64,000 bases of DNA from positions 4,396,372 to 4,460,371 of the forward strand of contig CP070764.1 of NCBI GenBank assembly GCA_020349245.1, in the 5' to 3' direction. This stretch comes from Chloroflexota bacterium (GTDB lineage Bacteria > Chloroflexota > Anaerolineae > Anaerolineales > UBA4823). Positions 29,870 through 64,000 of this stretch are shown here, one piece after another; the first letter of the stretch is position 1; the number at the start of each line of letters is the position of its first letter. A model generated the notes under the pieces. The model ran no database searches, was not told where the DNA came from, and was given only the letters and a program-made list of their open reading frames with translations. A program made the position numbers and the translations under genes.

Positions 29870-30079
29870 TCAATCCGCCTCTTCGCGTATATGATTGGTA
29901 AGGCAGGAATTTTGAGGATCTCGGATAAAATCCTGCTGGCATCCAGGGGTACAGAAAAAAATCCATTTACCATCGTGAAGCACGTGCGGTGTCTCAAAGG
30001 TAAATTTATCTGGTGAACCACAAGCAGTGGTCACTTCGCTGCCGATGATTGGCAAAGGGATGCTGGACTCAGACTTCAT
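29870..30079 (-). CDS. YHS-domain-like small protein (69 aa)
   Basis: ACGSPDKFTFETPHVLHDGKWIFFCTPGCQQDFIRDPQ matches the YHS pattern (C-G ... H-x-G ... FC..C...F..dP). Its ATG overlaps the ccmD stop (ATGA). Confidence 0.55.
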   Translation of the reverse strand: MKSESSIPLPIIGSEVTTACGSPDKFTFETPHVLHDGKWIFFCTPGCQQDFIRDPQNSCLTNHIREEAD

Positions 30080-30252
30080 TGTCCTTCCCCCTGGATCTCT
30101 TCCAGGACTTGAAGGTCTTTCTGCAAATTCCGTTGGCGAACCAACAGGCTGATCAAGTAAATAAACATCAAGCCAAAAATTACCGTATATCCTGCGATCA
30201 TGTAATTCGTTGTGTTAGCGGGTGCTTCTTGCAAGAAAAATGTCAGTAACAT
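30076..30252 (-). CDS. ccmD: CcmD-like haem exporter small subunit (58 aa, absent from ORF track)
   Basis: My own translation: MLLTFFLQEAPANTTNYMIAGYTVIFGLMFIYLISLLVRQRNLQKDLQVLEEIQGEGQ. It has a single TM followed by a basic stretch and sits directly after ccmC, as ccmD does in System I operons. Confidence 0.6.
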   Translation of the reverse strand: MLLTFFLQEAPANTTNYMIAGYTVIFGLMFIYLISLLVRQRNLQKDLQVLEEIQGEGQ

Positions 30253-30265
30253 TTTGTGAATCCTT

Positions 30266-30964
30266 TTATTCCATGGTTTTCAGGCGGAGTTGTTCAACCC
30301 GGTCAGCTTGTTGACCGAGGCGGATGCGATGCCAGAACAAGTCGATGAAAATGAATGTAAAAGTTAATAAGCTGAACATGAAAGTCTGCAGCATCAGGGG
30401 CGTCATATCGAAAGAACCCGTGGCACCTGGGTCCCCGCTGCCTATCACCACGGGGTGAATTGTGCGAAATATCCGGGCAGAGAAGTATGTAATGGGTACA
30501 CTCAGGGATCCCACGATGGCGTAGACTGCGCCGAAGCGCGCCCGTCGATCCGGATCTTCGATCCCCTGGCGCAACATCAGATAAGCGAGATAGATCAAGA
30601 GCATCACCGTGGCTGTAGTTAACCTGGGGTCCCAGGTCCACCACGTATTCCAGATCGGTCGAGCCCAGATTGAACCGGTCACGATATTGATGAAGATAAA
30701 GACAATGCCGATCTCAACAGCTGCCAGACCGACAATATCCCACTTGCGATTCTTCTTGATTAAATAAATGATTCCAGCCACGGCAGCTCCAATGAATCCA
30801 AGCATACCCACCCAACCGGCGGCTACATGGAAATAAAATACTCGCTGGACGTCACCCATCACCGCTTCTTGGGGTGCGTAGAAGAACACCATATATGAGG
30901 CAACCAGAAGCAGGATTATAGTGACGACGTCCAGTATGGAAAGGAGGCGAGGTTTTGATACCAT
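30266..30964 (-). CDS. ccmC: haem exporter protein CcmC
   Basis: Trp-rich WWD motif WARPIWNTWWTWDPRL in a 6-TM protein, following ccmAB. Confidence 0.9.
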   Translation of the reverse strand: MVSKPRLLSILDVVTIILLLVASYMVFFYAPQEAVMGDVQRVFYFHVAAGWVGMLGFIGAAVAGIIYLIKKNRKWDIVGLAAVEIGIVFIFINIVTGSIWARPIWNTWWTWDPRLTTATVMLLIYLAYLMLRQGIEDPDRRARFGAVYAIVGSLSVPITYFSARIFRTIHPVVIGSGDPGATGSFDMTPLMLQTFMFSLLTFTFIFIDLFWHRIRLGQQADRVEQLRLKTME

Positions 30965-31007
30965 AAATTAACTCCAGGAAAGATTTGATAAACACCTACA
31001 ACGTCGC

Positions 31008-31745
31008 TCACTCTTCAACCACGTAATCAAAAACCATGAATGCGACTGCGGAAAATATTATATCGTAGACGATCAGTAAATTTAACCAGGGACGGATGAG
31101 TTCCATTTCACTCCCATCCAGGAAGCCTGTACTGGCCTTAACTGCAGAGAGAATAACTGGCAGCACGACCGGGAATAGCAAGATGGGCAGCAGGATATCG
31201 CGTGTACGGGCTTGAACTGCCATGGCAGCCAGCAGGGTGCCAACGGCGACGTAGCCAATCGAACCGAGCAAGATCACCAGCAACAAACCCAGGGTAAATA
31301 GATTGACGTTGTAAAGAATACTGTAGATTGGCAGGACGATAATCTCAACCATCAACATGAAGACCAGATTACCCAGAGATTTGCCGAAATAAATAGCGCT
31401 GCGGTCGACCGGAGCGAGAAGCAATCCATCGATACAGCCGCGGTCTTTTTCTATTGCCATTGACCGGTTGAGGCCCAGGGTTCCTGCAAAAATAAAAATC
31501 ACCCAGAGAATACCCGCGGTGATGGTCGGCTCTCTCCTTGTTGCTGGATCGAGGTCAAGCGCAAAATTGAAGATCAGGATCACCAGTAACGCAAAGACCA
31601 GCATCGCAGAGAGCAGCTCCCGACTGCGCAGCTCTGCAGAGAGGTCTTTCCAAACCACGGCACCCATGGCACGCAAAAAACCAACCGCCTTATCCGCCGT
31701 CCGCGGTTTCCCTTGTGTAATGGAGGATTCGCGCTGGATGCTCAT
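31008..31745 (-). CDS. ccmB: haem exporter permease CcmB
   Basis: 6-TM ABC-2 type permease between ccmA and ccmC; its start overlaps the ccmA stop. Confidence 0.85.
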   Translation of the reverse strand: MSIQRESSITQGKPRTADKAVGFLRAMGAVVWKDLSAELRSRELLSAMLVFALLVILIFNFALDLDPATRREPTITAGILWVIFIFAGTLGLNRSMAIEKDRGCIDGLLLAPVDRSAIYFGKSLGNLVFMLMVEIIVLPIYSILYNVNLFTLGLLLVILLGSIGYVAVGTLLAAMAVQARTRDILLPILLFPVVLPVILSAVKASTGFLDGSEMELIRPWLNLLIVYDIIFSAVAFMVFDYVVEE

Positions 31746-32443
31746 ATTTTTTTGAGAGCCTCCCGATAGAAACTTAGCAGTTGATCAGTTTTGATCTCCT
31801 CTCTGTTAACTGAGGCGCTGATTACCCCGCGCGAGATGACATCGAAACGGGATGCCAGGTCTGCGGCGCGCGCCAGGTCATGGGAAGTCATGTCAACCGT
31901 GAGGCCTTTAGCGGCAACTTCTCTTAAAACAGTATCCAGCATGGCGCTGGCATCCTGATCTAAGCCGGTGTGGGGTTCATCAAAAAGCATCACGTCAGGA
32001 TCATGCAGTACTGCCCGTCCGATTGCCAGTCGCTGCTGCATCCCACGGGAATAAGTGCGGACCAAGGCCCTGCGGCGGGTTGTCAAGCCGACCAGTTCCA
32101 AGACCTCTGCCACGCGATTGCCCAGATCCTGTACACCGTACATCCGTCCATAAAATCGCAAATTTTCCTCAGCCGTTAGGTCCCCATAGAGGAGAGGTTG
32201 GTGAGAAACGACTCCCAGCCGCCGGCGTACCGCGGCAGCCTGGTCAGGCAGTCGGTATCCAGCGATGATGACCCCTCCCATCGATGGCCGGGAGAGTGAA
32301 GCCAAGATTCGCAGGAATGTGGTTTTTCCTGCGCCATTCGGGCCCAGAAGAGCAACAAATTCTCCTTGTTTTACTTGAAAATCCATCCCGCGCAACACGG
32401 TTTTCAAGCCAAATCGCTTGACAAGCTTGTGAACTTCAATCAT
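31742..32443 (-). CDS. ccmA: haem exporter ATP-binding protein CcmA
   Basis: Walker A GPNGAGKTT, signature YSRGMQQRL, Walker B MLFDEP. Confidence 0.9.
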   Translation of the reverse strand: MIEVHKLVKRFGLKTVLRGMDFQVKQGEFVALLGPNGAGKTTFLRILASLSRPSMGGVIIAGYRLPDQAAAVRRRLGVVSHQPLLYGDLTAEENLRFYGRMYGVQDLGNRVAEVLELVGLTTRRRALVRTYSRGMQQRLAIGRAVLHDPDVMLFDEPHTGLDQDASAMLDTVLREVAAKGLTVDMTSHDLARAADLASRFDVISRGVISASVNREEIKTDQLLSFYREALKKI

Positions 32444-34501: not shown

Positions 34502-35122
34502 TTAGCTAGTATTTGTCAGGGCATTACCACACTTGGGGCAGAAGCGATCGGATTTCTGTACAGGGCGCCCACATTGCGGGCAAAATCCTGCAGATTTATC
34601 CTGACGGGCGCGTCGTCTGGCGGCGAGCTGCACTTCAACTTCGTCATCTGCATCGACGATTACGGCATGCGGTTGCTGGTCAGCAAACACATCATCTCTG
34701 TCTCCAGCGGCTGTACGACGTTCCGCGATGGCTGCTTCAATTCGCTCTTCTATCTCAGCATCGGAGATTTCCCCCTGTAACTGATCCAAGTTTCGCAAGA
34801 CCTCAGCTCCTTGCATTAGCAGGCGCTCTCGTTGACCAGGATAATCCTCCTCAGGGATTTTCCCCAGGGTGTTGTCAAAATCCAGTTCTTCAAGAGCTGT
34901 CAGAACACGATCGCGTTCCGCAAGCAGGGTCGAGAGTTCATGTTCCTTTTCATCTTCTTCTGGCGTCAACCCAACTTCCAGCGGGGCAAGCAAGGGTCTT
35001 GAGATATAAAGAGCGGTTAAAATGAGCAGGGCGAGCAGTAGAAAAATCGAGCCAATGTCCATGATAGTTCTTTCTTCAACCAGGGGTATAGTGTTGGCTG
35101 ACGTGTTAGTTGCTGGATTCAA
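34502..35122 (-). CDS. CcmI-like N-terminal module fused to a C-terminal zinc ribbon
   Basis: A TM helix, then LLAERDRVLTALEELDFDNTLGKIPEEDYPGQRERLL. This resembles the CcmI/CycH N-terminal pattern L..L..D...G.I....Y....R. The C-terminus is CPQCGRPVQKSDRFCPKCG. It is located between ccmG and the dihaem gene. Confidence 0.5.
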   Translation of the reverse strand: MNPATNTSANTIPLVEERTIMDIGSIFLLLALLILTALYISRPLLAPLEVGLTPEEDEKEHELSTLLAERDRVLTALEELDFDNTLGKIPEEDYPGQRERLLMQGAEVLRNLDQLQGEISDAEIEERIEAAIAERRTAAGDRDDVFADQQPHAVIVDADDEVEVQLAARRRARQDKSAGFCPQCGRPVQKSDRFCPKCGNALTNTS

Positions 35123-35720
35123 GCAGAGGGTCGATCAAGCTTTGAATCTCAGCCAGAGAAAGGAAAGGAGAAATTTTGAAAGAGGCTAATTTCCCGTCTC
35201 GATCGATAATGTAGGTTTCCGGCACTCCCCGAATTCGGAATGCCTGCGAAATCTTTGTCCTCAGGTCAGGACCGTTAGGGTAAGTGATATCAAATTTTTC
35301 CAGGTATGCTTTTGCTTCGGTTTCAGTGTCAACGTAATCCACGCCTAGGAAGATCACATCACCCCGTGGCTGGTACATCCGCCAGGCAGTCTCCAAATCA
35401 GCAGCCTCCTGTTCGCAAGGTTTGCACCATGAAGCCCAAAAATTCAGCACAACTATTTTCCCGGAGAGGTCCTTTAGGCCAATCTGGTCGCCCTCAAAGG
35501 TGGTCAGGGTAAAATCCGGTACTTTCTCACCAACAGAAACTGGACCTTCCTGGTTGCGCAGGAGGCCAAAAGCCAACAGGGTTAATAAGGCAAATATACC
35601 GACCCAAGCTGCAATCGCGCCAAATGAAAAATTCCTACCAAATAAGGATAATCTGCGTTTTGCCGGTGCGCTGCTTTCACTTCTCTCCAGGTCCGGAGCG
35701 TTTTCTGGCATCTCTGACAT
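35106..35720 (-). CDS. ccmG: thiol:disulfide oxidoreductase CcmG/DsbE (TlpA/ResA-like thioredoxin)
   Basis: N-terminal TM, WASWCKPC active site and GVPETYIID. Confidence 0.88.
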   Translation of the reverse strand: MSEMPENAPDLERSESSAPAKRRLSLFGRNFSFGAIAAWVGIFALLTLLAFGLLRNQEGPVSVGEKVPDFTLTTFEGDQIGLKDLSGKIVVLNFWASWCKPCEQEAADLETAWRMYQPRGDVIFLGVDYVDTETEAKAYLEKFDITYPNGPDLRTKISQAFRIRGVPETYIIDRDGKLASFKISPFLSLAEIQSLIDPLLESSN

Positions 35721-35761: not shown

Positions 35762-36271
35762 TTACCGGCGCCGTAGTTCGTCTTCAATCCTGGCAACATA
35801 CTCATCTCCCGGCTCTTCAGCGGGCTGACTTTCTTGTGCGAGGATTGGGGAGGCTTGTCTCCAAGATTTCAGGGCACGGTAGAGGATATAAATACCAGCG
35901 ATGAGGACCAAGGGGGGGATGATGTAAACGAGCCAATTCAGACCTCTGGCTGGAGGCGCGGCAAGCACACGATCACCGTATTGGTTTACAAAATAGGTCT
36001 TGATCTGGTCTTCAGTCCATCCCTCAGCTAGCTTTTCGCGAATCAATTCACGCCATTGGGCGCAGGCCTGGGTAGGACAAACGTCCAATGGAATGTTCTC
36101 ACATACCGGGCAGTAAAGTTGTTTTGCTACTGCGTTAACCTCATCATCAGTTGGTCCACTGGCAGGCACTTCCTGGGCAAAAACTGTGCTCACTGATGCG
36201 AGGGAGGCTACTATCGCGATGAGGACAAGCAGGAAAACGAAAATGGGAACTGAACGACTGTTGGGTTTCAT
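35762..36271 (-). CDS. ccmH: cytochrome c-type biogenesis protein CcmH
   Basis: Signal peptide, LYCPVCEN (LRCxxC-type) motif, and a conserved ...QYGDRVLAAPP segment followed by a TM helix. Confidence 0.88.
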   Translation of the reverse strand: MKPNSRSVPIFVFLLVLIAIVASLASVSTVFAQEVPASGPTDDEVNAVAKQLYCPVCENIPLDVCPTQACAQWRELIREKLAEGWTEDQIKTYFVNQYGDRVLAAPPARGLNWLVYIIPPLVLIAGIYILYRALKSWRQASPILAQESQPAEEPGDEYVARIEDELRRR

Positions 36272-38337
36272 GGTTTTGCTGCCACGAAGCTCGTGCTGGT
36301 AGTCTTGACTCGCAACTCTTCAGGATCGCGATCAGGCCAGGCAGCGACAAGCGTGCCGAGAATGAATACAAAGCCTCCCAACCAAAGCCAATTGACGAGC
36401 GGGTTGTGGTAAATTTTGAACGTTGCACCTGCGGTTGAGATAGGCTGCCAGTCAACCAGAAGGATATAGAAATCGTCTTCCCAAGAGCTGCGAACACCGG
36501 GAATCGTCATTGGCTGTTGGGATTCGTAATAGTAATCTCTGCGGGGGTAGAGCTCACCGAGGAACTGATCATTCTTGTTGACACTCATTACTGCTCGGGC
36601 GACATTGCGCCCGTCAGCGGTATCAAAAACCGAAAGCGAATTAAATGTCACAGAATAATCCCCAAGCGTAATCTGCTCACCCTGTGAGATAGTGCCTTGG
36701 GTTTCACTCTGAAATACTTCGATTCCGATGATACCGATTGCCATCAGCACAACGCCCAGATGGATGATATAGCCGCCATACCTGCGCCGGTTACGGCCGG
36801 CTAAATGCCATAATGCAGCTGGAAAACGCTCGCCAGAGCGGCGGTGACGGGCCAGGGCGCCACGCCAGAATTCATACAGGGTTACTGCAGATACGAAGGC
36901 GCACAACCAGAAACCGAGAATCGCTGCCCAGTTGCGCATCCCTCCGACCAGGATAATGACTACGATGACCAATGAGGCGATGAAAGGCTTCCAAATCGCC
37001 TTACCCAAAGTCTTGGTGGAGGAATATCTCCAGGCAGCGAGGGGAGCGACTCCCATGAGAAGCAGCAGACCAGCGAACAGGGGTGCAGTTGCCCTTTCGT
37101 AAAATGGCGGCCCTACGGTGACTTTCTGACCGGTGAATATCTCCGAGATCAGTGGGAAAAGAACTCCCCAGAAGCAAACCACGAGAATACCAATAAAAAG
37201 TAAATTGTTGAGCAGAAACAAAGCTTCCCGGGATAGGAGAGATGACATCTGAGTCTGGGATTTCAACTCATTCCATCGCCGGAGTAATAATGACAGGGAG
37301 ACAATAAATGTCAGACCGATGAAAGCGAAGAAAACAGGACCGATGGCACTCTGTGCAAATGCATGGACTGAGGAAAGCACACCGGAGCGGGTCAAAAAAG
37401 TACCGAAAATTACCAATTCGTATGTCAGGATGATGAGGATCATGTTCCAGTGTTTCAACATGCCGCGTTTTTCCTGGATCATTACCGAATGCAGGAAAGC
37501 TGTGCCTGTTAACCAGGGCATAAATGCCGCGATCTCCACGGGGTCCCATCCCCAATAACCTCCCCAACCCAAGACATCGTACGCCCAACGCCCGCCTAGG
37601 ATTAAGCCGAGAGAGAGAAATAACCAGGCTACCAATGTCCAGCGCCGGGTGATGCGGATCCAGCGATCATCTGTACGACCCGTAACCAGGGCGGCAATCG
37701 CAAATGCATAAGGAATCACAAATGACACAAAACCCAGGTAGAGCATCGGTGGGTGGATGATCATGCCAGGATGGCGGAGAAGCGGGTTCAGCCCGCTTCC
37801 ATCGGCTGCTATATAAGGAACCGAACCGGCTGGCTGTAGCATACCGGTGGTAAACTGCCCGGTGGCTGACTGCCAAATTCGAACAAACGGGTTTTCAATG
37901 AATATACTCAGAGAAAGGAAGAAAGCCAGCGTGACCAGGGAGACAATGATCACCCAGGGTAAAAATTCCTGGTCTCGCTTCCATTTTCGCAGCGTGACAG
38001 CCGAAGCGAAAGCTGCCAACAACCAAGACCAAAAAACCAGCGAGCCTGCCTGACCACCCCATAAAGCTGTGACCTTCAAGTAAAGGGGCATGCTGTTGCT
38101 AGTCACACTGGCGACATACTCTACTTCGTAGGCATTGGTGACCAGGAGATAAATGATGCTCAACGCTGAGACCGTCACCAGCGGGAAGGTCAGCAGCATG
38201 GCGCTGCGCGCACTGGCAATCCAGCGGTGGTCCTTTTTTCGAGCTCCATAGTATGCTGCACTGATTCCAAAAAGAGATATTAAAAACGTGATGATAAGTG
38301 CGCCGTAACCTATATTTGCTACCATAAATATCTCCAA
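36268..38337 (-). CDS. ccmF: cytochrome c haem lyase CcmF
   Basis: 689-aa polytopic protein with the WWD motif WGGYWGWDPVE. Confidence 0.92.
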   Translation of the reverse strand: MEIFMVANIGYGALIITFLISLFGISAAYYGARKKDHRWIASARSAMLLTFPLVTVSALSIIYLLVTNAYEVEYVASVTSNSMPLYLKVTALWGGQAGSLVFWSWLLAAFASAVTLRKWKRDQEFLPWVIIVSLVTLAFFLSLSIFIENPFVRIWQSATGQFTTGMLQPAGSVPYIAADGSGLNPLLRHPGMIIHPPMLYLGFVSFVIPYAFAIAALVTGRTDDRWIRITRRWTLVAWLFLSLGLILGGRWAYDVLGWGGYWGWDPVEIAAFMPWLTGTAFLHSVMIQEKRGMLKHWNMILIILTYELVIFGTFLTRSGVLSSVHAFAQSAIGPVFFAFIGLTFIVSLSLLLRRWNELKSQTQMSSLLSREALFLLNNLLFIGILVVCFWGVLFPLISEIFTGQKVTVGPPFYERATAPLFAGLLLLMGVAPLAAWRYSSTKTLGKAIWKPFIASLVIVVIILVGGMRNWAAILGFWLCAFVSAVTLYEFWRGALARHRRSGERFPAALWHLAGRNRRRYGGYIIHLGVVLMAIGIIGIEVFQSETQGTISQGEQITLGDYSVTFNSLSVFDTADGRNVARAVMSVNKNDQFLGELYPRRDYYYESQQPMTIPGVRSSWEDDFYILLVDWQPISTAGATFKIYHNPLVNWLWLGGFVFILGTLVAAWPDRDPEELRVKTTSTSFVAAKP

Positions 38338-50368: not shown

Positions 50369-50710
50369 GTGATGATGGCCAACCGTCAGGTTTACGTGAT
50401 ATGGGTGAACCCACTATTCCATGATAGTTTGCACCAGTTGTTGGCTCATGCTGAAATCGAATGGGTGGGTGCTGCCTCAGATTTCTCAACCGCTGTAGAA
50501 GAGATCTCTCACCTCCATCCTGACACAATTCTCATCGAAGAGATGGCTGGAGCGACGACCACTTCTGCTTTCATGGAAATCGTGGAAAAGTTTCAGTGGG
50601 ATTTGCGGGTGGTGGGTGTCAGTCTCAGGGATAACCAAATGAGTGTTTTCCAGCATGCACAACAGACGGTGGGGCAACCAGAGGATTTGATACGGTTAAT
50701 TATCCAATGA
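50369..50710 (+). CDS. receiver-like (pseudo-receiver) domain protein, 113 aa
   Basis: CheY-like layout (VYVIWVNPLF...VGAASDFSTAVEEI..LHPDTILIEE), but the phospho-acceptor position reads E (LIEE), not D, and the N-terminal acidic pair is missing. The start is one of GTG/ATG/ATG at 50369-50377. Confidence 0.45.
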   Translation: MMMANRQVYVIWVNPLFHDSLHQLLAHAEIEWVGAASDFSTAVEEISHLHPDTILIEEMAGATTTSAFMEIVEKFQWDLRVVGVSLRDNQMSVFQHAQQTVGQPEDLIRLIIQ

Positions 50711-52248: not shown

Positions 52249-52280
52249 AATGCAATATATGCTTGCCTTATGAGAATAGT

Positions 52281-55715: not shown

Positions 55716-57129
55716 ATCAGAGGTGGTAGCATACCCTGAGGAAAGCAGTTCTGCGGAATTCGAAGATCGCCTGCTCCTCTCTGAACGAACAAGCGAAGAA
55801 ATCAATCGTGCTGTCCTAGAACCGATGTTCAGATCAAGTTGGCGCTTCTGGTTGCTGGTGGCCTTTTTAAGCGTTTTAGTTCTCTGGGGAGTGTTTGCCT
55901 GGGGGTACTTAATCTATTGGGGAATGGGAACCGCGGGCATCAATCGACCTGTTTATTGGGGATTTTTCATTGCTACTTTCGTATTTTGGGTTGGGATCAG
56001 TCACGCCGGAACAATGATCTCCGCGGTTTTACGGCTATTGAAGGCGGATTGGCGCCGGCCAATTACCCGGGGTGCAGAGGCCATGACAGCCTTTGCCCTG
56101 ATGATGGCTGGCTTATTCCCTTTCATTCACTTAGGAAGGGTTTGGAAATTTTATTGGATGATTCCCTATCCCAATAATCGTTTTATGTGGCCGAATTTCC
56201 AATCTCCCTTGATGTGGGATATGGTCGCCATCTTTACTTACCTGATTGGCTCGAGTCTCTATCTCTACCTGGCACTGATCCCAGATCTGGCCATGGCTCG
56301 TGACCACACTTCAAAATGGCGTCAGAAGCTCTACAGAATTTTATCCCTCGGATGGCGAGGTACGGAGGCGGAGTGGCATAAGCTCCAGCGGGCATTAAGC
56401 ATTTTTTCGGTGGCCATTATTCCAATCTTCCTCTCAGTCCACTCGATTGTCTCTTGGGATTTTGCCGTCACCATTCAACCTCGCTGGCACAGCACGATTT
56501 TCGCGCCCTACTTCGTGGTTGGCGCGATTTATTCGGGATTGGCTGCACTGGCTGCCATCCTTGTGATTGTTCGCAAGGGCATGCAGCTTCAGGAATTTCT
56601 ACGGGCTGAGCACTTTAATGCTCTCGGAAAATTAGTCATGGTGGCTGGCATGGCCTGGACCTATTTCTGGTTTGCAGGCTTTATCGTGGAATGGTATGGA
56701 AATGAACCGGTGATTCGTGAATTGATCCATGAAGAAGTATCCGGCGATCTCGCGCCACTCTTTTACCTGCAGATGTCTGCCAATTTGATCCCGATTGTCA
56801 TGCTGGTGTTTAAAAAAGTCCGCGTGACACCCTGGTTATTACTCCTCGCCGCAGTAATGGTCAACATTGGTATGTTTACAGAGCGTGTACTAATCGTTGT
56901 CGGCAGTTTGCAGCGCAACTTTATGCCTTTCAACTGGGGGGATTACAGTCCATCCTGGGTTGAAATAAGCATCGTTGTGATGACATTTGCTGGCTTTGCG
57001 CTTTTGTATACGCTTTTTTCACGTGTTTTCCCCTATGTCCCGGTTTGGGAGATCAAAGAAGGGCGTTTGCGTTATACGATGCGCCGGATTGGCCGCTTAT
57101 TGGTGCCAACCGCAGCTGAGATTGAGTAA
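55708..57129 (+). CDS. actC: ACIII subunit ActC (NrfD/PsrC-like quinol-interacting membrane subunit)
   Basis: 473-aa polytopic NrfD-family protein directly after the Fe-S subunit. Confidence 0.85.
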   Translation: MSESEVVAYPEESSSAEFEDRLLLSERTSEEINRAVLEPMFRSSWRFWLLVAFLSVLVLWGVFAWGYLIYWGMGTAGINRPVYWGFFIATFVFWVGISHAGTMISAVLRLLKADWRRPITRGAEAMTAFALMMAGLFPFIHLGRVWKFYWMIPYPNNRFMWPNFQSPLMWDMVAIFTYLIGSSLYLYLALIPDLAMARDHTSKWRQKLYRILSLGWRGTEAEWHKLQRALSIFSVAIIPIFLSVHSIVSWDFAVTIQPRWHSTIFAPYFVVGAIYSGLAALAAILVIVRKGMQLQEFLRAEHFNALGKLVMVAGMAWTYFWFAGFIVEWYGNEPVIRELIHEEVSGDLAPLFYLQMSANLIPIVMLVFKKVRVTPWLLLLAAVMVNIGMFTERVLIVVGSLQRNFMPFNWGDYSPSWVEISIVVMTFAGFALLYTLFSRVFPYVPVWEIKEGRLRYTMRRIGRLLVPTAAEIE

Positions 57130-57245: not shown

Positions 57246-57773
57246 ATGAGTGAAAAAACAATCTCCCTGGTCGCTCTATTTCAAGAGAGTACTGATACCG
57301 CCAAGGCCATTGATGACCTCCACAATTTAGGGATCCCGGATGAAAATATGGTGGTCATGTCAGATGTACCCTATCCCGAAAAAGCCTTGGGCAGAACAGG
57401 TGAGTGGCTCACCCTGCCATATATCGTGCTTGCTGGAGCTGTGGTGGGCCTGTTGATTGGATTATTTTTGTCTGCGATCACCCCTCATCTCTACCGCCTG
57501 GATGTAGGCGGTCACCCACCGGTTGGATTTCCTCCCGCAGCAGTGATCACTTTTGTTTTTACCATGATGGCGATCATCGTGTCCACATTTCTCGGTGTGC
57601 TCTGGGAGATGGATTTCCCCAGCTTTGGTCCTGTACCGTACAACAAAGCTGTCACTGATGGCAAATTAGGTGTGCTTGTTGAATTCCCAACTGAATTGAA
57701 GGATAGCGTCAACCGGGTGTTCAAGGAAAACCAGGCTGATTTTATCGGGGAACCGGAGATGATATCGCTATGA
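57246..57773 (+). CDS. actD: ACIII subunit ActD (DUF3341-type membrane protein)
   Basis: A soluble N-terminal part (LVALFQESTDTAKAIDDL) followed by two TM helices, at the position expected for ActD after ActC. Confidence 0.7.
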   Translation: MSEKTISLVALFQESTDTAKAIDDLHNLGIPDENMVVMSDVPYPEKALGRTGEWLTLPYIVLAGAVVGLLIGLFLSAITPHLYRLDVGGHPPVGFPPAAVITFVFTMMAIIVSTFLGVLWEMDFPSFGPVPYNKAVTDGKLGVLVEFPTELKDSVNRVFKENQADFIGEPEMISL

Positions 57774-58276
57774 ACTCTCGCTTACAGCGTGGATTGATCT
57801 TCATCCTCGTCCTTACGATACCTTTCTTAATTAGTCTCTTGTTTACTTACGAGGTCTTGAAAATCCCGTTTACCACGGATATGCAGTATCAAGCCTCCAT
57901 AAATTATCAAGAGGGTCCTCGCCTATTGCCACCGGAAGATGCGGTTCCGATACAAGGCCTTGCTATCATCCCCGATGAATTTCCGGAAAATCCAATTACA
58001 GCGGATGATGTCTCCTTGCAGCGGGGAAAAATCCTCTTCGATATTCATTGCCAGATTTGTCACGGAGTAAATGGACATGGAGATGGTCCTTTGGCGCAAT
58101 ATTTTGAGCGTACCCCGGAAAATCTAACCGGCCCACAAATATCGGCAGAATTCGATGGGGCTGTCTACTTAACCATCCGAAATGGATTTGGCCAGATGCC
58201 AGCATTATCTGAAAATCTGACGCCGCATGAAACCTGGGATGTGGTGAATTATCTTCACACGCTACCCGTGAGGTGA
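57770..58276 (+). CDS. actE: ACIII subunit ActE (monohaem cytochrome c)
   Basis: N-terminal TM/signal, a single CQICHG, and a Met ligand region GFGQMPA. Confidence 0.8.
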   Translation: MNSRLQRGLIFILVLTIPFLISLLFTYEVLKIPFTTDMQYQASINYQEGPRLLPPEDAVPIQGLAIIPDEFPENPITADDVSLQRGKILFDIHCQICHGVNGHGDGPLAQYFERTPENLTGPQISAEFDGAVYLTIRNGFGQMPALSENLTPHETWDVVNYLHTLPVR

Positions 58277-58285: not shown

Positions 58286-59332
58286 ATGATAACCAAAATT
58301 GCATTCATGTCTTCAGTCGTTATCTTGTTACTTGCTGCTTGTTCTGCACCGCAGAGTCTACCTTCGGGTCCTACCCCGATCCCAACCCTCATCCCTGCCA
58401 CAGATCTGGGCAGTCCTCTGACTGAAACGGCACAACCTTCTTATCCCATTCAGAGTTACCCAGCCCGGTTGCCCTCAGCAGAGCTCGGTTTTCCACTTTA
58501 CCAGGCTCACTGTGCCAGCTGTCATGGGGATGATGGGAATGGGGTTGTCCCAGGAGCCCGAAATTTTGGTGATTTGGATTATATGCGCGGAGAAACTCCG
58601 GCCTTTTTCTATACCACGGTTGCTGAGGGTCGCGGTGAGATGCAGGGATTTCGTGATGAACTGACTTCAGATGAGCTTTGGGATGTTGTTTTTTACGTGT
58701 GGCGGTTTTCTACCGATACCGAAACACTTAACCTTGGACAAAATATCTATGAGGAGAATTGCCAGGTTTGCCATGGGCTCGATGGAACGGGAGCAGTGCT
58801 TGGCGCTGCTGATTTCTCTGATTTGCGGGTAGTTGATGACCAGGCTCCTCGAGATTTCTACCTCGTAACGACACAAGGGAAAGGTTCAATGCCGGCCTGG
58901 CAGGGGCGCTTATCCCAGGATGAACGCTGGGCAGTGATTGATTATCTGCGCACCTTCTCGTACGACCCGAGTCTCCCGGGGGAAGTTGTAGAACAACCGC
59001 CCCCAACGACTGTTCCAGAGGAGAGTGGCTGTGATCCGAATTATCTTACCCAAACCAATCCCTTTGATTGGAACGATTCGGCTGCCAGCATCGCCGGTCA
59101 AGTAATTTATGACCAGGCGTGTGGCATGTGTCACGGGGTTGATGGTTCCGGAGGTCTTCCGGGTACCCCTGACTATACTGATGCCGCAGTTGCACAGGAT
59201 CTTCGCTCCAATGGTGGTGAAAAACTATGTGTAGTCGCCGAGGGGAAAGAATCAATGCCCGGTTGGAAAGAGACCCTTACAGAGCAACAGATGTGGGAAG
59301 TGCTCACTTACCTGTATTCATTTGGAAAATAG
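58286..59332 (+). CDS. trihaem class-I-type cytochrome c lipoprotein
   Basis: Lipobox LLAAC, a Pro-rich linker, and three cyt c units: CASCHG, CQVCHG, CGMCHG. Confidence 0.88.
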   Translation: MITKIAFMSSVVILLLAACSAPQSLPSGPTPIPTLIPATDLGSPLTETAQPSYPIQSYPARLPSAELGFPLYQAHCASCHGDDGNGVVPGARNFGDLDYMRGETPAFFYTTVAEGRGEMQGFRDELTSDELWDVVFYVWRFSTDTETLNLGQNIYEENCQVCHGLDGTGAVLGAADFSDLRVVDDQAPRDFYLVTTQGKGSMPAWQGRLSQDERWAVIDYLRTFSYDPSLPGEVVEQPPPTTVPEESGCDPNYLTQTNPFDWNDSAASIAGQVIYDQACGMCHGVDGSGGLPGTPDYTDAAVAQDLRSNGGEKLCVVAEGKESMPGWKETLTEQQMWEVLTYLYSFGK

Positions 59333-59680
59333 GTTTTAAAACCGAAACTTAATTTTTGAGCTTCGGCGGTTCTTAATCACCAAAGTCAGCCATAAAATAA
59401 ATTTTGGGTCGCTGGATTCGCATTGCATTGTTCAAATATGCGAGAAGTATATATATACGGTTTTTAAAAAGGACTGTTTTTGCCTTATTCGTCGCTGAAT
59501 ATATGATATACTCCCTAACCTGTTACTCATCTTAGGGTGATAATCATATGCAAAACTACAAAATAGGAATCTGGTATACAGGGAAGTATGCCAGCTACAT
59601 TCGTTTAGACCTTGCGAGAAAGGAGGCTGCCGCTCACCAAATAAAAAATAAAGAAAGACACATCAGTATGACCTCAATTT

Positions 59681-59698
59681 AGTGTATCCGGATACACT
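59681..59698. promoter_or_regulatory. perfect 18-bp palindrome agtgtatccggatacact upstream of hexahaem gene A
   Basis: Self-complementary over 18 nt. It ends 3 nt before the aaggag RBS of the ATG at 59712. An identical copy sits at 61228-61245. Confidence 0.6.
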
Positions 59699-59711: not shown

Positions 59712-60773
59712 ATGAAACATAAACATCTTTTCATCGGGCTATTACTGCTGATCGCTGCCTTGGCTCTGGCAGCCTGTGCAGGAACGCCCGGCCCTGAAGG
59801 ACCGCAAGGTCCTCCTGGGCCAGAAGGCCCCCCTGGTCCAGCTGGTCCAGCTGGTCCTGCCGGTGCTGCCGGTACCGCAGGGGAGGCTGGCGCAGCTGCA
59901 GAGATGGGCGATCTGTCCTGCACTGAATGCCATAATGATACAACCTTGATCGTCGGCAAGAAAACAGCCTGGAGTGAGTCCCTGCATGGTTCTGGTGAAG
60001 CCTACGTGCGCGGGACCAATGCCAGCTGTGCAGGTTGTCACTCAGGGGGTGGTTTTAGCGCCAGGATTGCAGCTGGGCTGAATCCAGATGAGGTTGCGGA
60101 AGGGGATCCCAACCCAACCCGCCAGGACTGCCGAACCTGTCACCAGATTCACGTCACCTATACCGGCGAGGATTGGGCTTTGGAGTCCACCGATCCGGTG
60201 GATTTCTTCGCGGTCGAAGGCGCGACTTATGATGGCGGTGAAGGTAACCTGTGTGCCAATTGCCACCAACCTCGGCGCGTTTTCCCGGGTGCAGTCGATG
60301 GTGTGGTCACCGGTATCTCTGAGCACTGGGGCCCGCACCATGGCGGACAAGCTCCGATGTTGCTCGGTGTCGCTGGTGCGGGTGATGTTGAAGGCAGCCC
60401 CAGCTCGCATTACAACATGGTGGAAGACACCTGCGTGGCCTGCCATATGGGTCCAGATCGAGTTCATACCTATGAACCAAATGTTGCCGTGTGCCAGGAG
60501 TGCCATTCAGGAGCTGAAAACTTTGATATCAACGGCGTGCAAACCGAGGTCCAGGCTCAGCTAGATGAGCTTGGGGACGCTCTGGTCGCAGCGGGTGTAC
60601 TCAGTGAAAATGGTCCTGAAGGACACCCGACTGTCGAGGAAGCTCCCGAGGGCTTGGCCATCGCTCTTTGGAACTGGATCTACATCGCCCATGAGGACAA
60701 GAGCTTGGGTGTCCACAATTCAGCCTACACCAAAGCTCTGCTCGAGGAGGCTTTCGCCGCCTTAGAGCAGTAA
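59712..60773 (+). CDS. hexahaem c-type cytochrome lipoprotein with collagen-like stalk (paralog A)
   Basis: aaggag [25 protein letters not shown] lipobox, 13 G-X-Y triplets, then CTECH, CAGCH, CRTCH, CANCH, CVACH, CQECH. The C-terminus [17 protein letters not shown] helix motif is like NrfA/HAO-type multihaem proteins. The track start at 59682 is a GTG inside the palindrome. Confidence 0.88.
   Translation: MKHKHLFIGLLLLIAALALAACAGTPGPEGPQGPPGPEGPPGPAGPAGPAGAAGTAGEAGAAAEMGDLSCTECHNDTTLIVGKKTAWSESLHGSGEAYVRGTNASCAGCHSGGGFSARIAAGLNPDEVAEGDPNPTRQDCRTCHQIHVTYTGEDWALESTDPVDFFAVEGATYDGGEGNLCANCHQPRRVFPGAVDGVVTGISEHWGPHHGGQAPMLLGVAGAGDVEGSPSSHYNMVEDTCVACHMGPDRVHTYEPNVAVCQECHSGAENFDINGVQTEVQAQLDELGDALVAAGVLSENGPEGHPTVEEAPEGLAIALWNWIYIAHEDKSLGVHNSAYTKALLEEAFAALEQ
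59781..59897 (+). repeat. collagen-like (Gly-X-Y)13 coding repeat
   Basis: [39 protein letters not shown], including a perfect ggtccagct x2 tandem. Confidence 0.9.
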
Positions 60774-60826
60774 AATATGTGGGTAATTTTGCATAAATAA
60801 CCGCATATTTTTCAATTAAATTGCTG

Positions 60827-60867
60827 CTGTGTGCGTCGCCAGATACGCGGCGCACACAGTCTTTTTT
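60827..60867 (+). terminator. rho-independent terminator after paralog A
   Basis: A 13-bp stem (ctgtgtgcgtcgc / gcggcgcacacag, one G-U pair), then c and a run of 6 T. Confidence 0.8.
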
Positions 60868-61227
60868 AACATTCAAAAGCAATGTCTTTCCAGGATATGC
60901 GAATTATCCAGGACATAGCAAGGCTTGGTTTCTACTTGGTGCTGGGGTGAGAATCCAAGCTGATCGAATCCCCAAAAATGAAATATTTTCCAACTCATGT
61001 TCTCCCAAAATACTGGGAAGCCATACATTTGTCATATAGTGTAATGTGACATAATTCACTAATATCCTTCTCATAATTGGGGTATAAATCATATGCAAAA
61101 TTACCCAATTGAAGCCTGGCAGCACGGGAGGTATGCTGGGAATATTCGTTTATAGATACAACGAGAGAGGAGGACGCCTATCCCTGTAAAGTATTGAAGA
61201 AGGAACGCCCTAAAAAGACTTTATTTT

Positions 61228-61245
61228 AGTGTATCCGGATACACT
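61228..61245. promoter_or_regulatory. second copy of the 18-bp palindrome agtgtatccggatacact
   Basis: Identical sequence and identical spacing to the RBS/ATG of paralog B. Confidence 0.6.
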
Positions 61246-61258: not shown

Positions 61259-62326
61259 ATGAAACATAAACATCTTTTCATCGGGCTATTACTGCTGATC
61301 GCTGCCTTGGCTCTGGCAGCCTGTGCAGGAACGTCCGGACCTGAAGGACCGCAAGGTCCTCCCGGCCCAGAAGGTCCTCCCGGACCAGCTGGACCTGCAG
61401 GGCCTGCTGGCCCTGCCGGTACCGCAGGGGAGGCTGGCGCAGCTGCAGAGATGGGTGATCTCACCTGCACTGAATGTCACAATGACTCGGCAGTTATGGC
61501 TGGCATTTCAAATTCATGGTCAGAATCGTTACATGGCAGTGGGGAAGCCACGGCCTATGCAGGCAGCAGAACTTCCTGCACAGGCTGCCATTCTGGCGGT
61601 GGCTTCAGTGCGGCTGTTGAAGCCGGGGTAAGTCCAGTAGGTGAACAGGAGTCAGCGGCTGCGAACCCAAGCCGCCCAGACTGCCGGGCCTGCCACCAGG
61701 TCCACGTTACCTATACCGGTGAAGACTGGGCTCTGGAAACCACAGAAGCAGTGCCGATGGCTGCCTTCGAAGGCGAGACCTTTGACGGTGGAAAGGGCAA
61801 CCTGTGCGCCAACTGCCACCAGGCTCGCCGCGGCGTTGATGAACCCAATGCTGATGGCGATGTTGAAGTAACCAGCACCCACTGGGGACCCCATCACGGT
61901 CCTCAGAGTGCCATGCTGCTTGGCCTGGCTGGCGCGGGTGAAGTTGAAGGCGCTCCCAGCGCACACGCCACCATGGTGGAAGACACCTGTGTAGCCTGCC
62001 ATATGGGTGATGGCAAGGTTCATACCTTTGAGCCAAATGTAGCTGCCTGTCAGGAATGCCACTCCGGTATGGAAACCTTCGATGACACCGGTTTGCAGAC
62101 CGAAGTCCAGGAAAAACTGGATCAACTGGAAGAGGCACTCGTCGCCCGTGGTTGGTTGGACGAAGAAGGTCATCCAGCAGTAGAAGCCATCCCCGCACCT
62201 GAAGCTTATGCTCTGTGGAACTGGATCTACATCGCCCACGAGGATAAAAGCTTAGGTGTCCACAACCCCACCTACACCAGGGCTCTACTAGATGAGTCGC
62301 TGGCTACATTAGGACTTGGGGAGTAA
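61259..62326 (+). CDS. hexahaem c-type cytochrome lipoprotein with collagen-like stalk (paralog B)
   Basis: Same signal peptide and lipobox as paralog A, 13 G-X-Y triplets, then CTECH, CTGCH, CRACH, CANCH, CVACH, CQECH. The track start at 61229 is upstream, inside the palindrome. Confidence 0.88.
61328..61444 (+). repeat. collagen-like (Gly-X-Y)13 coding repeat
   Basis: [39 protein letters not shown]. Confidence 0.9.
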
Positions 62327-62374
62327 TAAGGACGAATAATTCAGGTTAATTAGCTAACCTCGAATTGCGAGACC

Positions 62375-62421
62375 ACTGCTGTGTGATCTTTACAAACACG
62401 AGATCACACAGCAGTTTTTTT
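62375..62421 (+). terminator. rho-independent terminator after paralog B
   Basis: A 15-bp perfect stem (actgctgtgtgatct / agatcacacagcagt), an 11-nt loop, and a T7 run. Confidence 0.85.
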
Positions 62422-62555
62422 GTATATAATTTTTTTATGGGAAAATTCAAGAATGGAATCAAAATCGAAAGGAGGAAGCTGAACTGGATTAATCTCCATA
62501 GATTGCCCCATAATCTCGATCGTATGTAGATGGTGATACGCTCAAGGAGAATATT

Positions 62556-64000
62556 ATGAAATATAAATATTTTATTGTTGGTTTCCTAGTGCTGTTAGCT
62601 GCCCTCGTTCTGGCAGCGTGCGGTACTGCGGGGCCAACGGCAGAAGCCACGCCATGCCCTGTACCGGAACCCTGCCCGGAATGCCCGCAGGTCAGCTGCC
62701 CGGATTGTCCTGAGTGCCCGGAACCAGTGGTAGCTGTAGTGCCTTTCGAACAGGAGTGGGCTAATTCACCCCACAACGCTGCCGATGCAGAGGCTTTCCG
62801 TCACTGGGATGAAGATGATCCGGCGCAGATTCCCGAATCTTGTGCCAAGTGTCACAGCACACCCGGACATTTGGACTTCCTGGGTGAGGATGGCAGTGAA
62901 GCCGGCGTGGTGGATGCTCCCGCGCCGATCGGGACAACCATTGAATGCGTCGCTTGTCACAATGACACCAACCTGGTCAAAGATAGCGTGGTCTTTCCCT
63001 CGGGGGTGGAGTTAACTGACCTGGGTGACCAGGCCCGCTGCATGGAGTGCCACCAGGGACGATCCTCCAAGTTTACCGTGGATGAAGCTATTGCTGAGGC
63101 AGTCGGCGAAAATCTCGACATGGTCAGCGAGGACCTGGGCTTCATCAATATCCATTACTATGCTGCAGCAGCCACGCGCTATGGTACGGAGGTGATGGGC
63201 GGGTACGAGTATGATGGTCTGGCTTACGACCCGCGCTTTGACCACGTGGAGGGCTACCAATCCTGCATCAACTGCCACGACATGCACACGCTGGAACTTA
63301 AGGTTGAGGAATGCGGTGGCTGCCACGCGGGCGTTTCAACCCTGGAAGATGTGGAACAGATCCGTTTCGCTGGCTCGCTGAATGACTATGATGGTGATGG
63401 TGATGTTGAAGAACCTATTAAGGATGAACTCACCGGGTTGCAAGAATTGCTCTACCTGAACATGCAGGCTTATGCCAGTGAGGTAGCTGGTTCTTCACTG
63501 GTCTATGATGCCGCCAGCTATCCGTATTTCTTCGATGAGGCTGGTGAAAGATATGCTGCCTGGACCGGTCGCCTGGTGAAAGCAGCTTACAATTACCAGG
63601 TCTCTCTCAAAGATCCGGGTGCCTTCGCCCATGGTGGCAAGTACATCATCCAGCTGCTCTATGACTCGATCGCGGACCTGAATGGTCAAGTAGGAACGCC
63701 GGTTGATATGAGTATCCTACACCGCGAGGATCCTGGGCATTTTGCAGCTGCTGGTGAACCCTGGCGCCACTGGGACGAGGACGACCCCAAGGAAGTCCCG
63801 GCCAGCTGCTCGAAGTGCCATTCAGCCGAGGGACTGCCGACCTTTATCACCACCGGCGGAGATACCTACCCGCAACCGGTGGCCAGCGGCTTGAACTGCG
63901 CTACCTGCCACGACGACCTGTCGACTTTCACTCGTTACGTTTCGGAGGAAGTGACCTTTCCCAGCGGGGCTACCGTATCGTTTGAAAATGTGGATGCGAA
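62556..64000 (+). CDS. large multihaem c-type cytochrome lipoprotein with Cys-Pro-rich linker, 5' part (at least 7 CXXCH in window; continues past window end)
   Basis: Not in the ORF track because it has no stop. My own translation from the ATG at 62556 (RBS aaggag) has no stop through 64000. It reads MKYKYFIVGFLVLLAALVLAACGTAGPTAEATPCPVPEPCPECPQVSCPDCPECPEP..., then CAKCH, CVACH, CMECH, CINCH, CGGCH, CSKCH, CATCH. Confidence 0.85.
   Translation, partial: MKYKYFIVGFLVLLAALVLAACGTAGPTAEATPCPVPEPCPECPQVSCPDCPECPEPVVAVVPFEQEWANSPHNAADAEAFRHWDEDDPAQIPESCAKCHSTPGHLDFLGEDGSEAGVVDAPAPIGTTIECVACHNDTNLVKDSVVFPSGVELTDLGDQARCMECHQGRSSKFTVDEAIAEAVGENLDMVSEDLGFINIHYYAAAATRYGTEVMGGYEYDGLAYDPRFDHVEGYQSCINCHDMHTLELKVEECGGCHAGVSTLEDVEQIRFAGSLNDYDGDGDVEEPIKDELTGLQELLYLNMQAYASEVAGSSLVYDAASYPYFFDEAGERYAAWTGRLVKAAYNYQVSLKDPGAFAHGGKYIIQLLYDSIADLNGQVGTPVDMSILHREDPGHFAAAGEPWRHWDEDDPKEVPASCSKCHSAEGLPTFITTGGDTYPQPVASGLNCATCHDDLSTFTRYVSEEVTFPSGATVSFENVDA

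Follow-up and report, generated by a model that had tools for sequence, protein, structure and literature searches.

A stretch of 64,000 nucleotides (nt) from a Chloroflexota bacterium (Anaerolineales; UBA4823; assembly GCA_020349245.1, contig CP070764.1, positions 4,396,372–4,460,371), hereafter the window, carries from position 29870 to its end an island of cytochrome genes that spans about 35 kb and brings together haem attachment, three quinol-linked membrane complexes, two sensor systems and membrane-tethered multihaem cytochromes. The gene content was assigned from a map of open reading frames (ORFs) and from Pfam scans of all 30 island ORFs, to which NCBIfam models and PDB sequence searches were added. 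By Pfam, nearly all genes encode a component of the cytochrome c maturation (Ccm) system, a c-type cytochrome, a subunit of a Rieske/cytochrome b complex or of a complex resembling alternative complex III (ACIII), or a regulator (Table 1), while the genes upstream belong to ordinary metabolism. The Pfam and motif scans thus bear out a preliminary description of this DNA as a cytochrome, Ccm and quinol-complex island from 29870 to 64000, although its statement that every gene falls into these categories is too broad by three, namely a zinc-ribbon protein, a 113-amino acid (aa) ORF and a YHS-like ORF.

Within the window 59 CXXCH motifs are distributed over 12 ORFs (5,234 aa), whereas none occurs in the 8,049 aa of the 22 upstream ORFs, an enrichment far beyond chance; the total becomes 62 when the last gene is taken at its full length (10 motifs). 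The same 12 ORFs had been credited with 60 motifs, the NapC-like one with 8, where it has 7 CXXCH and 2 CX3-4CH. A lipobox is found in seven cytochromes (regular expression [LVI..][ASG..][AGS]C within the first 60 residues), in agreement with the at least seven lipoproteins proposed earlier, and the distance between the end of the bc-type complex (47978) and the start of ActA (52263) is 4.3 kb, close to the 4 kb given before. No island ORF matches the Pfam families of haem-copper oxidases, bd oxidases or Nar/Nap/Nir/Nor/Nos enzymes, as had been stated of haem-copper oxidases and N-oxide reductases. The earlier count of two quinol-oxidising complexes has to be raised to three quinol-linked modules by the addition of a NapC/NirT-like cytochrome.

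Table 1. Features of the cytochrome island; positions are counted from the first nucleotide of the window (TM, transmembrane helix; TAT, twin-arginine translocation; RBS, ribosome-binding site).
Feature	Position	Strand	Evidence or remark
YHS-like, metal-binding type 69-aa ORF (tentative)	29870-30079	-	YHS E 0.0026, below Pfam cut-off
CcmD-like 58-aa single-TM ORF, after ccmC (tentative)	30076-30252	-	No Pfam match
ccmC	30266-30964	-	Pfam Cytochrom_C_asm 5.6e-30
ccmB	31008-31745	-	Pfam CcmB 8.3e-29
ccmA	31742-32443	-	Pfam ABC_tran 6.2e-30
Dihaem lipoprotein, 654 aa	32522-34486	-	Pfam Cytochrome_CBB3 2.2e-30; lipobox, TM
TM and C-terminal zinc-ribbon protein, 206 aa	34502-35122	-	Pfam Zn_Ribbon_1 3.5e-8
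Thioredoxin-like CcmG/ResA-type protein	35106-35720	-	Pfam AhpC-TSA 5.9e-24
ccmH	35762-36271	-	Pfam CcmH 1e-24
ccmF	36268-38337	-	Pfam CcmF_C 2.7e-58
ccmE	38421-38948	-	Pfam CcmE 1.1e-22
Two-component system 1, LuxR/GerE response regulator	39061-39798	-	Pfam
Two-component system 1, HisKA_3 kinase with multi-TM N-terminal sensor	39722-41269	-	Pfam; 4 predicted TM
Octahaem lipoprotein, 420 aa, ~13-triplet collagen-like stalk	41513-42775	+	8 CXXCH, lipobox, Pfam Collagen 5e-6
NapC/NirT-like membrane-anchored cytochrome, 585 aa	42838-44595	+	Pfam Cytochrom_NNT (PF03264) 8.8e-10
Rieske protein	44666-45190	+	Pfam Rieske
b6-type cytochrome b	45153-45851	+	Pfam Cytochrome_B
Subunit IV fused to seven tandem class-I c domains	45855-47978	+	Pfam Cytochrom_B_C, Cytochrome_CBB3
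Two-component system 2, HAMP/HisKA_3 kinase with dihaem-c sensor	48054-49568	+	Pfam; CXXCH at residues 123, 160
Two-component system 2, LuxR/GerE regulator	49558-50211	+	Pfam
Terminator-like hairpin after second regulator	50246-50274		
113-aa ORF	50369-50710	+	Response_reg E 0.0064, 17 bits, below cut-off
Pentahaem lipoprotein, 448 aa, ~9-triplet stalk, C-terminal class-I c domain	50848-52194	+	CXXCH, lipobox, Pfam
ActA, pentahaem	52263-52796	+	PF14522; five CXXCH
ActB1, Mo-pterin-family subunit, TAT signal	52862-55018	+	Pfam
ActB2, 4-cluster ferredoxin	55002-55715	+	Pfam
ActC, NrfD-type	55708-57129	+	PF03916; ~10 TM (hydropathy)
ActD	57246-57773	+	PF11821 1.5e-19
ActE, monohaem	57770-58276	+	PF13442
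Trihaem class-I lipoprotein, 348 aa, at ActF position	58286-59332	+	Cytochrome_CBB3 x3, 1.4e-41; lipobox
Conserved 76-nt element upstream of both hexahaem genes	59532-59607 and 61077-61152		
Perfect palindrome GTGTATCCGGATACAC just before each hexahaem RBS	59682-59697 and 61229-61244		
Hexahaem lipoprotein c6a (P0121), 353 aa, 13-triplet stalk	59712-60773	+	Lipobox; own transcription unit
Hexahaem lipoprotein c6b, 355 aa, tandem paralogue of c6a	61259-62326	+	Direct repeats D1-D5; own terminator before 62400
Strong terminator-like hairpins, one per hexahaem gene	60826-60860; ~62340-62400		
Decahaem lipoprotein, full length 720 aa (P0001)	62553-64000, end ~64715 outside window	+	100% identity over in-window part

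Anchored multihaem cytochromes and their stalks

The least expected trait of the island, absent from the preliminary description, is found in four lipoprotein cytochromes: the octahaem, the pentahaem and the two hexahaem proteins carry 9–13 uninterrupted Pro-rich G-X-Y triplets immediately after the lipobox cysteine, and these tracts are matched by the Pfam Collagen model and by the NCBIfam Scl/Lcl models; a profile of the hexahaem family compared with the PDB matched collagens and BclA through the collagen tract only. Across 53 sequences of this family Gly is invariant or nearly so at positions 24, 27, 30, 33, 36, 39, 51, 54 and 57, with X and Y varying, and 7–23 triplets (modes 9 and 13) are present in all 108 full-length members listed. 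By the regular expression, a lipobox is recognised in 110 of 120 hexahaem family proteins and in 104 of 116 of the decahaem family. Octahaem homologues in 8 other loci keep both the lipobox and 6–15 triplets, and the tract is found in homologous cytochromes of 15 loci (L001-L003, L012, L018, L028, L031, L033, L039, L042, L045, L047, L060, L077 and L080), including Ardenticatenaceae and Acidimicrobiia. Homologues with an ordinary Sec signal (L052 from Phycisphaerales, and L061) have neither lipobox nor G-X-Y tract, so that anchor and stalk go together.

At the DNA level the collagen-like tracts are 9-nt (and 18-nt) tandem repeats (41615-41646, 50935-50976, 59806-59873 and 61353-61416), which could allow a change in stalk length by slippage, in keeping with the spread of 7–23 triplets. 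Collagen rises by about 0.29 nm per residue and therefore the 27–39 residues of the tracts correspond to stalks of 8–11 nm. Uninterrupted Pro-rich G-X-Y tracts are shared with bacterial collagen-like proteins such as Scl1/Scl2 of Streptococcus, BclA of Bacillus and Lcl of Legionella; in contrast to these, the tract described here is short (7–23 triplets), lies between a lipid anchor and a multihaem domain and is accompanied by no evident separate trimerisation domain. The searchable literature yielded no description of multihaem cytochromes with collagen-like tracts.

The two hexahaem genes share identical leader and signal-peptide DNA, and each possesses its own upstream region and terminator. 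Homology was found between the hexahaem protein and one half of the decahaem protein encoded by the last gene (28% identity over 213 aa, E 4e-11), and therefore the three genes form one family built of one or two modules. The AlphaFold2 model of the hexahaem protein is poor (pLDDT 60.5) and its top fold match, the S-layer undecahaem cytochrome OmhA of Carboxydothermus ferrireducens (E 0.013), gives a hint of resemblance. Invariant in the family is also a His-His pair, H209/H210, reminiscent of the HH motifs found above the two open haems of OcwA. In public short-read contigs of this organism (L081 and L088) the sequence breaks off inside the second hexahaem gene; the near-identical tandem duplication thus collapses or fragments assemblies, and the copy number of hexahaem genes may be under-counted in metagenome-assembled genomes (MAGs).

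The decahaem protein consists of two tandem pentahaem modules of about 330 aa each, both opening with RHWDEDD, that together contain its ten CXXCH motifs. Between the lipid anchor and the haem domain lies a Pro-rich linker with CPxCP motifs (62553-62760), and in the decahaem family (P0001-P0120) the number of linker Cys residues is mostly even (0, 2, 4, 6, 8 and so on), as in an antibody hinge, which suggests a disulfide-linked dimer; in other members, EVEVTRVVEV-type repeats or large N-terminal extensions take the place of the Cys/Pro linker. The family comprises at least 6,366 proteins at E <= 1e-20, and a representative search returned 415 clusters at 50% identity and E <= 1e-30. Its members are named only 'hypothetical' or 'cytochrome c3 family' in the sources, no NCBIfam model fits them, and no relative was found in the PDB by sequence or profile search.

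The AlphaFold2 model of the decahaem protein (60 sequences) is confident (pLDDT 86.8, pTM 0.79) and is composed of helices and coil with almost no strands. Its top match in the PDB by Foldseek is OcwA (6i5b; E 0.012, prob 1.0, TM-score normalised to the target, TMt, 0.33), followed by NrfA-family chains at E > 1, so that the resemblance of the predicted fold to OcwA is weak but specific. OcwA, a terminal reductase at the surface of Thermincola potens, combines an NrfA-like multihaem part with a C-terminal helix bundle and reduces iron oxides and, slowly, nitrite; its HH motifs cap two open, catalytic haems (PMC6703420). Besides the ten CXXCH motifs, ten His residues are invariant in the decahaem family, enough for bis-His ligation of every haem, but given the precedent of OcwA such counting does not exclude open haems. 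An assignment to the MtrC/OmcA-type decahaem cytochromes was rejected: PF22113 scored 26 bits against a cut-off of 30, the model is poor in strands and no MtrC-family chain is among the Foldseek matches. The decahaem protein is the best candidate of the island for a terminal reductase at the surface.

Quinol-linked modules and the direction of electrons

The NapC/NirT-like cytochrome scores 39 bits with PF03264 (cut-off 24.1) and has one TM, at residue 40, followed by a long multihaem extension. The NrfH model reaches 58 bits, below its cut-off, and none of the equivalog cut-offs of NrfH, NapC and TorC is attained, so the assignment is at the level of the family; the protein is a candidate quinol dehydrogenase and, as such, the third quinol module of the island.

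The Rieske protein preserves both cluster-binding boxes (CTHLGC and CPCH), cytochrome b the four His of the b haems (99/100, 113, 200 and 215) and subunit IV the PEWY motif at residue 68. The seven repeats fused to subunit IV each contain LF..NC..CHG and a downstream Met-Pro that provides a candidate Met ligand, and this heptahaem tail is probably a long string of high-potential haems. A Rieske protein, a short b6-type cytochrome b, a fusion of subunit IV with cytochrome c and PEWY are in common with the b6c complex (QcrABC) of Bacillus and other Firmicutes, which however has one class-I c domain in place of seven. In addition, the cytochrome b reads WFYTLGS, with Thr where the Cys of haem ci would sit, a residue of the FYCLGG-type motif near the N-terminus of cytochrome b6.

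The ACIII-like complex shares with the ACIII of Rhodothermus, Flavobacterium and Chloroflexus/Roseiflexus and with the Qrc of Desulfovibrio a pentahaem ActA, a large Mo-pterin subunit with TAT signal, a four-cluster ferredoxin and a 10-TM NrfD-type subunit, together with ActD and monohaem ActE. It differs from canonical ACIII in that ActB is split into two genes (B1 and B2), as in Qrc, rather than being a single fused polypeptide, and in that no ActF is present (no second NrfD match was obtained in the island), its place being taken by the trihaem lipoprotein. The same gene order is observed in L001 and L033, and the trihaem lipoprotein directly follows ActE also in L001, L033 and L055; it is likely the electron output of the complex. 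An identification with Qrc (QrcABCD) was set aside, the QrcB model scoring below its cut-off and ActD and ActE being present beyond the four subunits. The label ACIII given in the preliminary description is appropriate for the general type of the complex, although the absence of ActF, the split ActB and the Cys motif of the FS0 cluster make it an atypical variant.

ActB1 keeps a four-Cys FS0 motif. The four Cys are invariant in 30 homologues, in which the mean column identity is 78% over the whole protein, whereas in the alignment ActB of R. marinus has no Cys at the FS0 positions and QrcB is reported to be devoid of redox cofactors (PMC13059093). The best PDB sequence match of ActB1 is ArrA, ahead of the ActB chains of ACIII, and a near-invariant Ser is aligned with the Mo-ligand Cys of ArrA; identification as ArrA was rejected, as the residues that bind arsenate are not conserved. 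A derivation of ActB from an ArrAB-like fusion, accompanied by the disappearance of cofactors, has been proposed (PMC10100899), and on this view a split complex that bears FS0 looks like an unfused intermediate between ArrAB and ActB, and in this respect it bears on the evolution of ACIII from arsenate-reductase-like enzymes.

By the same residues ActB1 may still be catalytic, as an active molybdoenzyme, and this opens a reading in which the terminal enzyme is hidden within the island: ActB1 would be a true enzyme with Mo/W-bis(pyranopterin guanine dinucleotide) and a soluble substrate, or else nitrite, hydroxylamine or another small molecule would be turned over by the decahaem and hexahaem proteins as NrfA/OcwA-like catalysts. 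The invariant FS0 Cys with the high conservation of the whole subunit, the Ser aligned with the Mo ligand of ArrA, the best PDB sequence match, and the absence of the FS0 Cys from R. marinus ActB and, as reported, of redox cofactors from QrcB agree with the first form, and the H209/H210 pair, compared with the HH-capped open haems and the slow nitrite reduction of OcwA, agrees with the second. On the other hand, ActC has about 10 TM, and the 10-TM group is associated with non-standard 'catalytic' subunits lacking cofactors (PMC6303296); ActA, ActD and ActE mark the complex as of ACIII type, the substrate-binding residues of ArrA are missing, and the ten invariant non-motif His of the decahaem family suffice for bis-His ligation throughout, a count which OcwA makes not decisive. 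This reading is the least probable of those weighed here.

Electrons might also flow inwards. Surface cytochromes would then take them from Fe(II), a cathode or a partner cell, and the ACIII/Qrc-like complex, the bc complex or both would reduce menaquinone in an uphill branch, a course proposed for neutrophilic iron oxidisers and demonstrated for Qrc. The best curated match of ActB1 is in fact QrcB, with 303 bits against a cut-off of 440, and Qrc itself works electrogenically as a cytochrome c3:menaquinone oxidoreductase (PMC6303296). For Fe(II) oxidisers, ACIII and bc complexes have been named as candidate components of reverse flow (PMC5566968), Ardenticatena maritima performs also cathodic extracellular electron transfer (EET) (PMC5808234), and the high-potential class-I haems would suit Fe(II) oxidation. 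The end cytochrome, however, has a reductase as nearest structural match, the neighbouring genes are those of a heterotroph (lactate permease, aldehyde dehydrogenase and fumarase), and neither Cyc2-like nor carbon-fixation genes were seen in the window. NapC/NirT-type proteins, moreover, are normally quinol dehydrogenases. Inward flow is regarded as distinctly unlikely.

Surroundings of the island and extracellular electron transfer

The island ends about 715 bp past the window and is followed by a convergent alpha-amylase gene and another minus-strand gene, as seen on two short contigs of the same organism (L086); in relatives at 76–81% identity a zinc-ribbon protein, an ABC transporter and a thiolase come next, all on the other strand. 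The island proteins were compared by tblastn with 80 loci encoding relatives of the last cytochrome, considering neighbours within 10 kb. Most of these loci belong to Chloroflexota, eight to Actinomycetota or Acidimicrobiia, and a few to Phycisphaerales, Trueperaceae, Myxococcota and others; the nearest species representatives are MAGs of Anaerolineales. A NapC-like cytochrome is near the decahaem gene in 41 of the 80 loci, a HisKA_3 kinase with a LuxR regulator in about 36, Rieske protein and cytochrome b in 24–25, the fusion of subunit IV with the heptahaem tail in 18 and ccm genes in 14, while the ACIII-like complex is restricted to the closest relatives L001, L033 and L055. In the more distant relative L090 the same cytochrome has other modules around it: an octahaem protein with a collagen tract, two multihaem cytochromes, one accompanied by a b-type cytochrome and one by Fer4 and NrfD proteins, a NapC-like protein and a kinase with its regulator; no terminal enzyme is found in this locus either. 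A crude scan for motifs of haem-copper subunit I (GHPEVY), CuA and bd oxidases, run with no positive control, gave no credible match in 1.48 Mb around 90 related loci. The core module is common in Chloroflexota and Acidimicrobiia and was seen beside an oxidase in none of the loci examined.

These data bear on a rival explanation, an ordinary aerobic or denitrifying chain. In it, class-I c domains would convey electrons from the bc and ACIII-like complexes to a haem-copper oxidase or N-oxide reductase whose gene lies in another part of the genome, and the multihaem lipoproteins would be accessory carriers. A-family oxidases and bc complexes are common in Anaerolineae (PMC8446752) and ACIII is generally described within aerobic chains (PMC10100899). 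The seven class-I domains of the subunit IV fusion, each with its candidate Met ligand, fit such a chain, as do ActE, the trihaem lipoprotein and the dihaem protein of the ccm operon, all of Cytochrome_CBB3 type; the top NCBIfam matches of the class-I proteins are models of ccoP, QcrC and c6-type cytochromes. Known ACIII and bc operons, however, often adjoin their oxidase, and here neither an oxidase nor a reductase was found in the 64 kb, on the downstream contigs of this organism or in the 10 kb around the 90 related loci (the motif part of this search being crude). An ordinary chain would also leave unexplained the stalked multihaem lipoproteins of c3/c7 type, the OcwA-like decahaem protein and the tight linkage of these cytochromes with bc genes across phyla, and it is considered unlikely.

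The reading preferred here, with a probability of about one half, takes the island as a complete set of parts with which a monoderm would build and run an extracytoplasmic cytochrome network, most likely for EET. It is favoured because the carriers are anchored and stalked, the end protein is OcwA-like, several quinol modules are present and no terminal enzyme is linked. Menaquinol would be oxidised by one of the three modules, the choice of which may follow the redox potential of the acceptor, as with ImcH, CbcL and CbcBA of Geobacter. Electrons would then pass to the lipid-anchored cytochromes, held on trimeric collagen-type stalks about 8–11 nm above the membrane, inside or across the wall, and from these to the OcwA-like decahaem protein, dimerised by its disulfide-bonded Cys/Pro hinge, which would reduce an acceptor outside the cell, for example Fe(III), Mn(IV), humics or a partner cell; the dihaem sensor kinase would read the redox state of this compartment and adjust expression. 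Among Chloroflexota isolates, A. maritima displays bidirectional EET with surface cytochromes (PMC5808234), and in the literature on Anaerolineales EET is only inferred, from many large multihaem cytochromes (PMC7399161).

An inference of this kind, from quinol to the cell surface, had been advanced in the preliminary description and is partly supported by the lipid anchors with their stalks, by the resemblance to OcwA and OmhA and by the varied quinol modules of relatives. It survives the examination of the downstream region, where no cox, cco, nir or nos operon occurs in the same organism or in close relatives. As for the chance that the locus is a common respiratory locus already characterised, the gene order does recur in part widely, but no paper was found that characterises it. 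The earlier remark that no terminal catalytic subunit is present holds for oxidases and N-oxide reductases and is probably wrong in spirit, the last gene being the best candidate for a surface reductase.

Several points weigh against EET. The direction of electrons and the acceptor are hypothetical, the monoderm envelope is assumed from the lineage, and the trimeric triple helix of the stalks is predicted from the G-X-Y sequence. The fold matches are weak (TMt 0.33 for OcwA; pLDDT 60 for the hexahaem protein). The cytochromes linked to the bc complex, to the ACIII-like complex and to the ccm operon are class-I domains with candidate Met ligands, and class-I His/Met domains usually feed oxidases or N-oxide reductases; in potential they would be too high to reduce ferric oxides. 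A terminal oxidase that the island serves may lie elsewhere in the 4.5-Mb genome. By analogy with QrcB, the closest curated family of ActB1, and with Qrc as menaquinone reductase, the flow could be inward, and the large subunit of the ACIII-like complex, with an FS0 motif absent from canonical ActB and QrcB, could itself be catalytic.

The island resembles a cluster of EET cytochromes of Gram-positive type, in which the collagen-stalked cytochromes and the split ACIII with FS0 are the distinctive parts. A multihaem relay from membrane to surface in a monoderm is known from Thermincola potens and T. ferriacetica (ImdcA, PdcA, CwcA and OcwA) and from C. ferrireducens (OmhA and SmhA-C), and judging from the top fold matches of the predicted models, OcwA for the decahaem and OmhA for the hexahaem protein, the end protein here would likewise be built on an NrfA-like pentahaem module with C-terminal helices. 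It differs in having no detectable sequence similarity to any solved structure and ten haems arranged as 2x5 rather than nine; in addition, the carriers are lipoproteins on collagen-like or Cys/Pro stalks, and the quinol side includes Rieske/cytochrome b and ACIII-like complexes. The presence of several alternative quinol-oxidising modules for one extracellular cytochrome network is a likeness to ImcH, CbcL and CbcBA of Geobacter, the modules here including the Rieske/cytochrome b and ACIII-like complexes as a point of difference. In architecture the NapC/NirT-like protein resembles ImcH, with one TM, a NapC-like N-terminus and 7–9 haems.

A more specific model, offered tentatively, is that of a wall-spanning conduit, by which monoderms (Chloroflexota and some Actinomycetota) would hold lipid-anchored multihaem cytochromes on rigid stalks. 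A collagen triple helix would gather trimers of 5–8-haem units on stalks of about 8–11 nm, or a disulfide-bonded Cys/Pro hinge would form decahaem dimers; the length would be tuned by slippage of the 9-nt repeats, and the conduit would be fed by an ACIII of ArrAB-like intermediate type still endowed with FS0. To our knowledge, electron crossing of the monoderm wall is understood for only one or two Firmicutes, and a stalked electron conduit, if true, would be a previously undescribed way across the cell wall. Sediments, aquifers, activated sludge and anode biofilms harbour abundant Anaerolineales, whose many multihaem cytochromes have been noted with no mechanism described. The island supplies a testable parts list made up of three quinol entry modules, stalked carriers, a widespread candidate terminal reductase and a haem-based redox sensor; the collagen-stalked cytochromes, if real, would represent a new structural idea with possible use in engineered electroactive surfaces.

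Control elements and haem-attachment genes

The first two-component system is divergent from the first cytochrome operon. In the second, the kinase has both its CXXCH motifs in an extracytoplasmic domain between TM 16 and TM 194, whose top PDB sequence matches are the PAS-like haem-c sensor domains of the Geobacter chemoreceptors GSU0935 (3b42, E 0.016) and GSU0582 (3b47, E 0.64). In other genomes, eight kinases of this dihaem kind, their CXXCH motifs spaced by 36 residues, are encoded close to homologues of the decahaem gene. Because the sensor resembles the Geobacter haem-c domains and similar kinases recur near decahaem homologues, it is likely a haem-based redox sensor dedicated to the cytochrome network of the island. 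With GSU0582 and GSU0935 it has in common an extracytoplasmic domain with covalently bound haem c, predicted here from the motifs; it differs in carrying two CXXCH 36–37 residues apart and in belonging to a HAMP/HisKA_3 kinase rather than to a chemoreceptor, and the match is weak (E 0.016).

Both hexahaem genes are preceded by the conserved 76-nt element and by the palindrome GTGTATCCGGATACAC, which are possible operators or 5'-untranslated control sites for the LuxR-type regulators. The promoter scan performed no better than on shuffled sequences, and Rfam and tRNA scans of the window gave no matches. The 113-aa ORF was rejected as a clear receiver domain, as its Response_reg match is below threshold and BLASTP finds no similarity to the second regulator, although it may be a degenerate one; the same ORF is called by the gene caller also on the independent contig L081. 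Just upstream of the island, beside an HlyD-family gene, an OmpR-type regulator and a HisKA/HAMP kinase (25411-27439) make up a third two-component system, with no obvious link to the island.

In the haem-attachment operon, CcmA, B, C, E, F and H and a thiol-disulfide oxidoreductase, all above the Pfam cut-offs, constitute a System I set; a CcmI/tetratricopeptide repeat protein was not found among the island ORFs. Besides its two class-I c domains, the dihaem lipoprotein of the operon contains a stretch of about 300 aa that matches no domain, a C-terminal TM helix and a charged tail, and a homologue with 40% identity occupies the same position of the ccm operon in L031. Homologues of the zinc-ribbon protein are present in the ccm operons of L017 and L031, and a zinc-ribbon protein is encoded also downstream of the decahaem gene in L001, L002 and L089.

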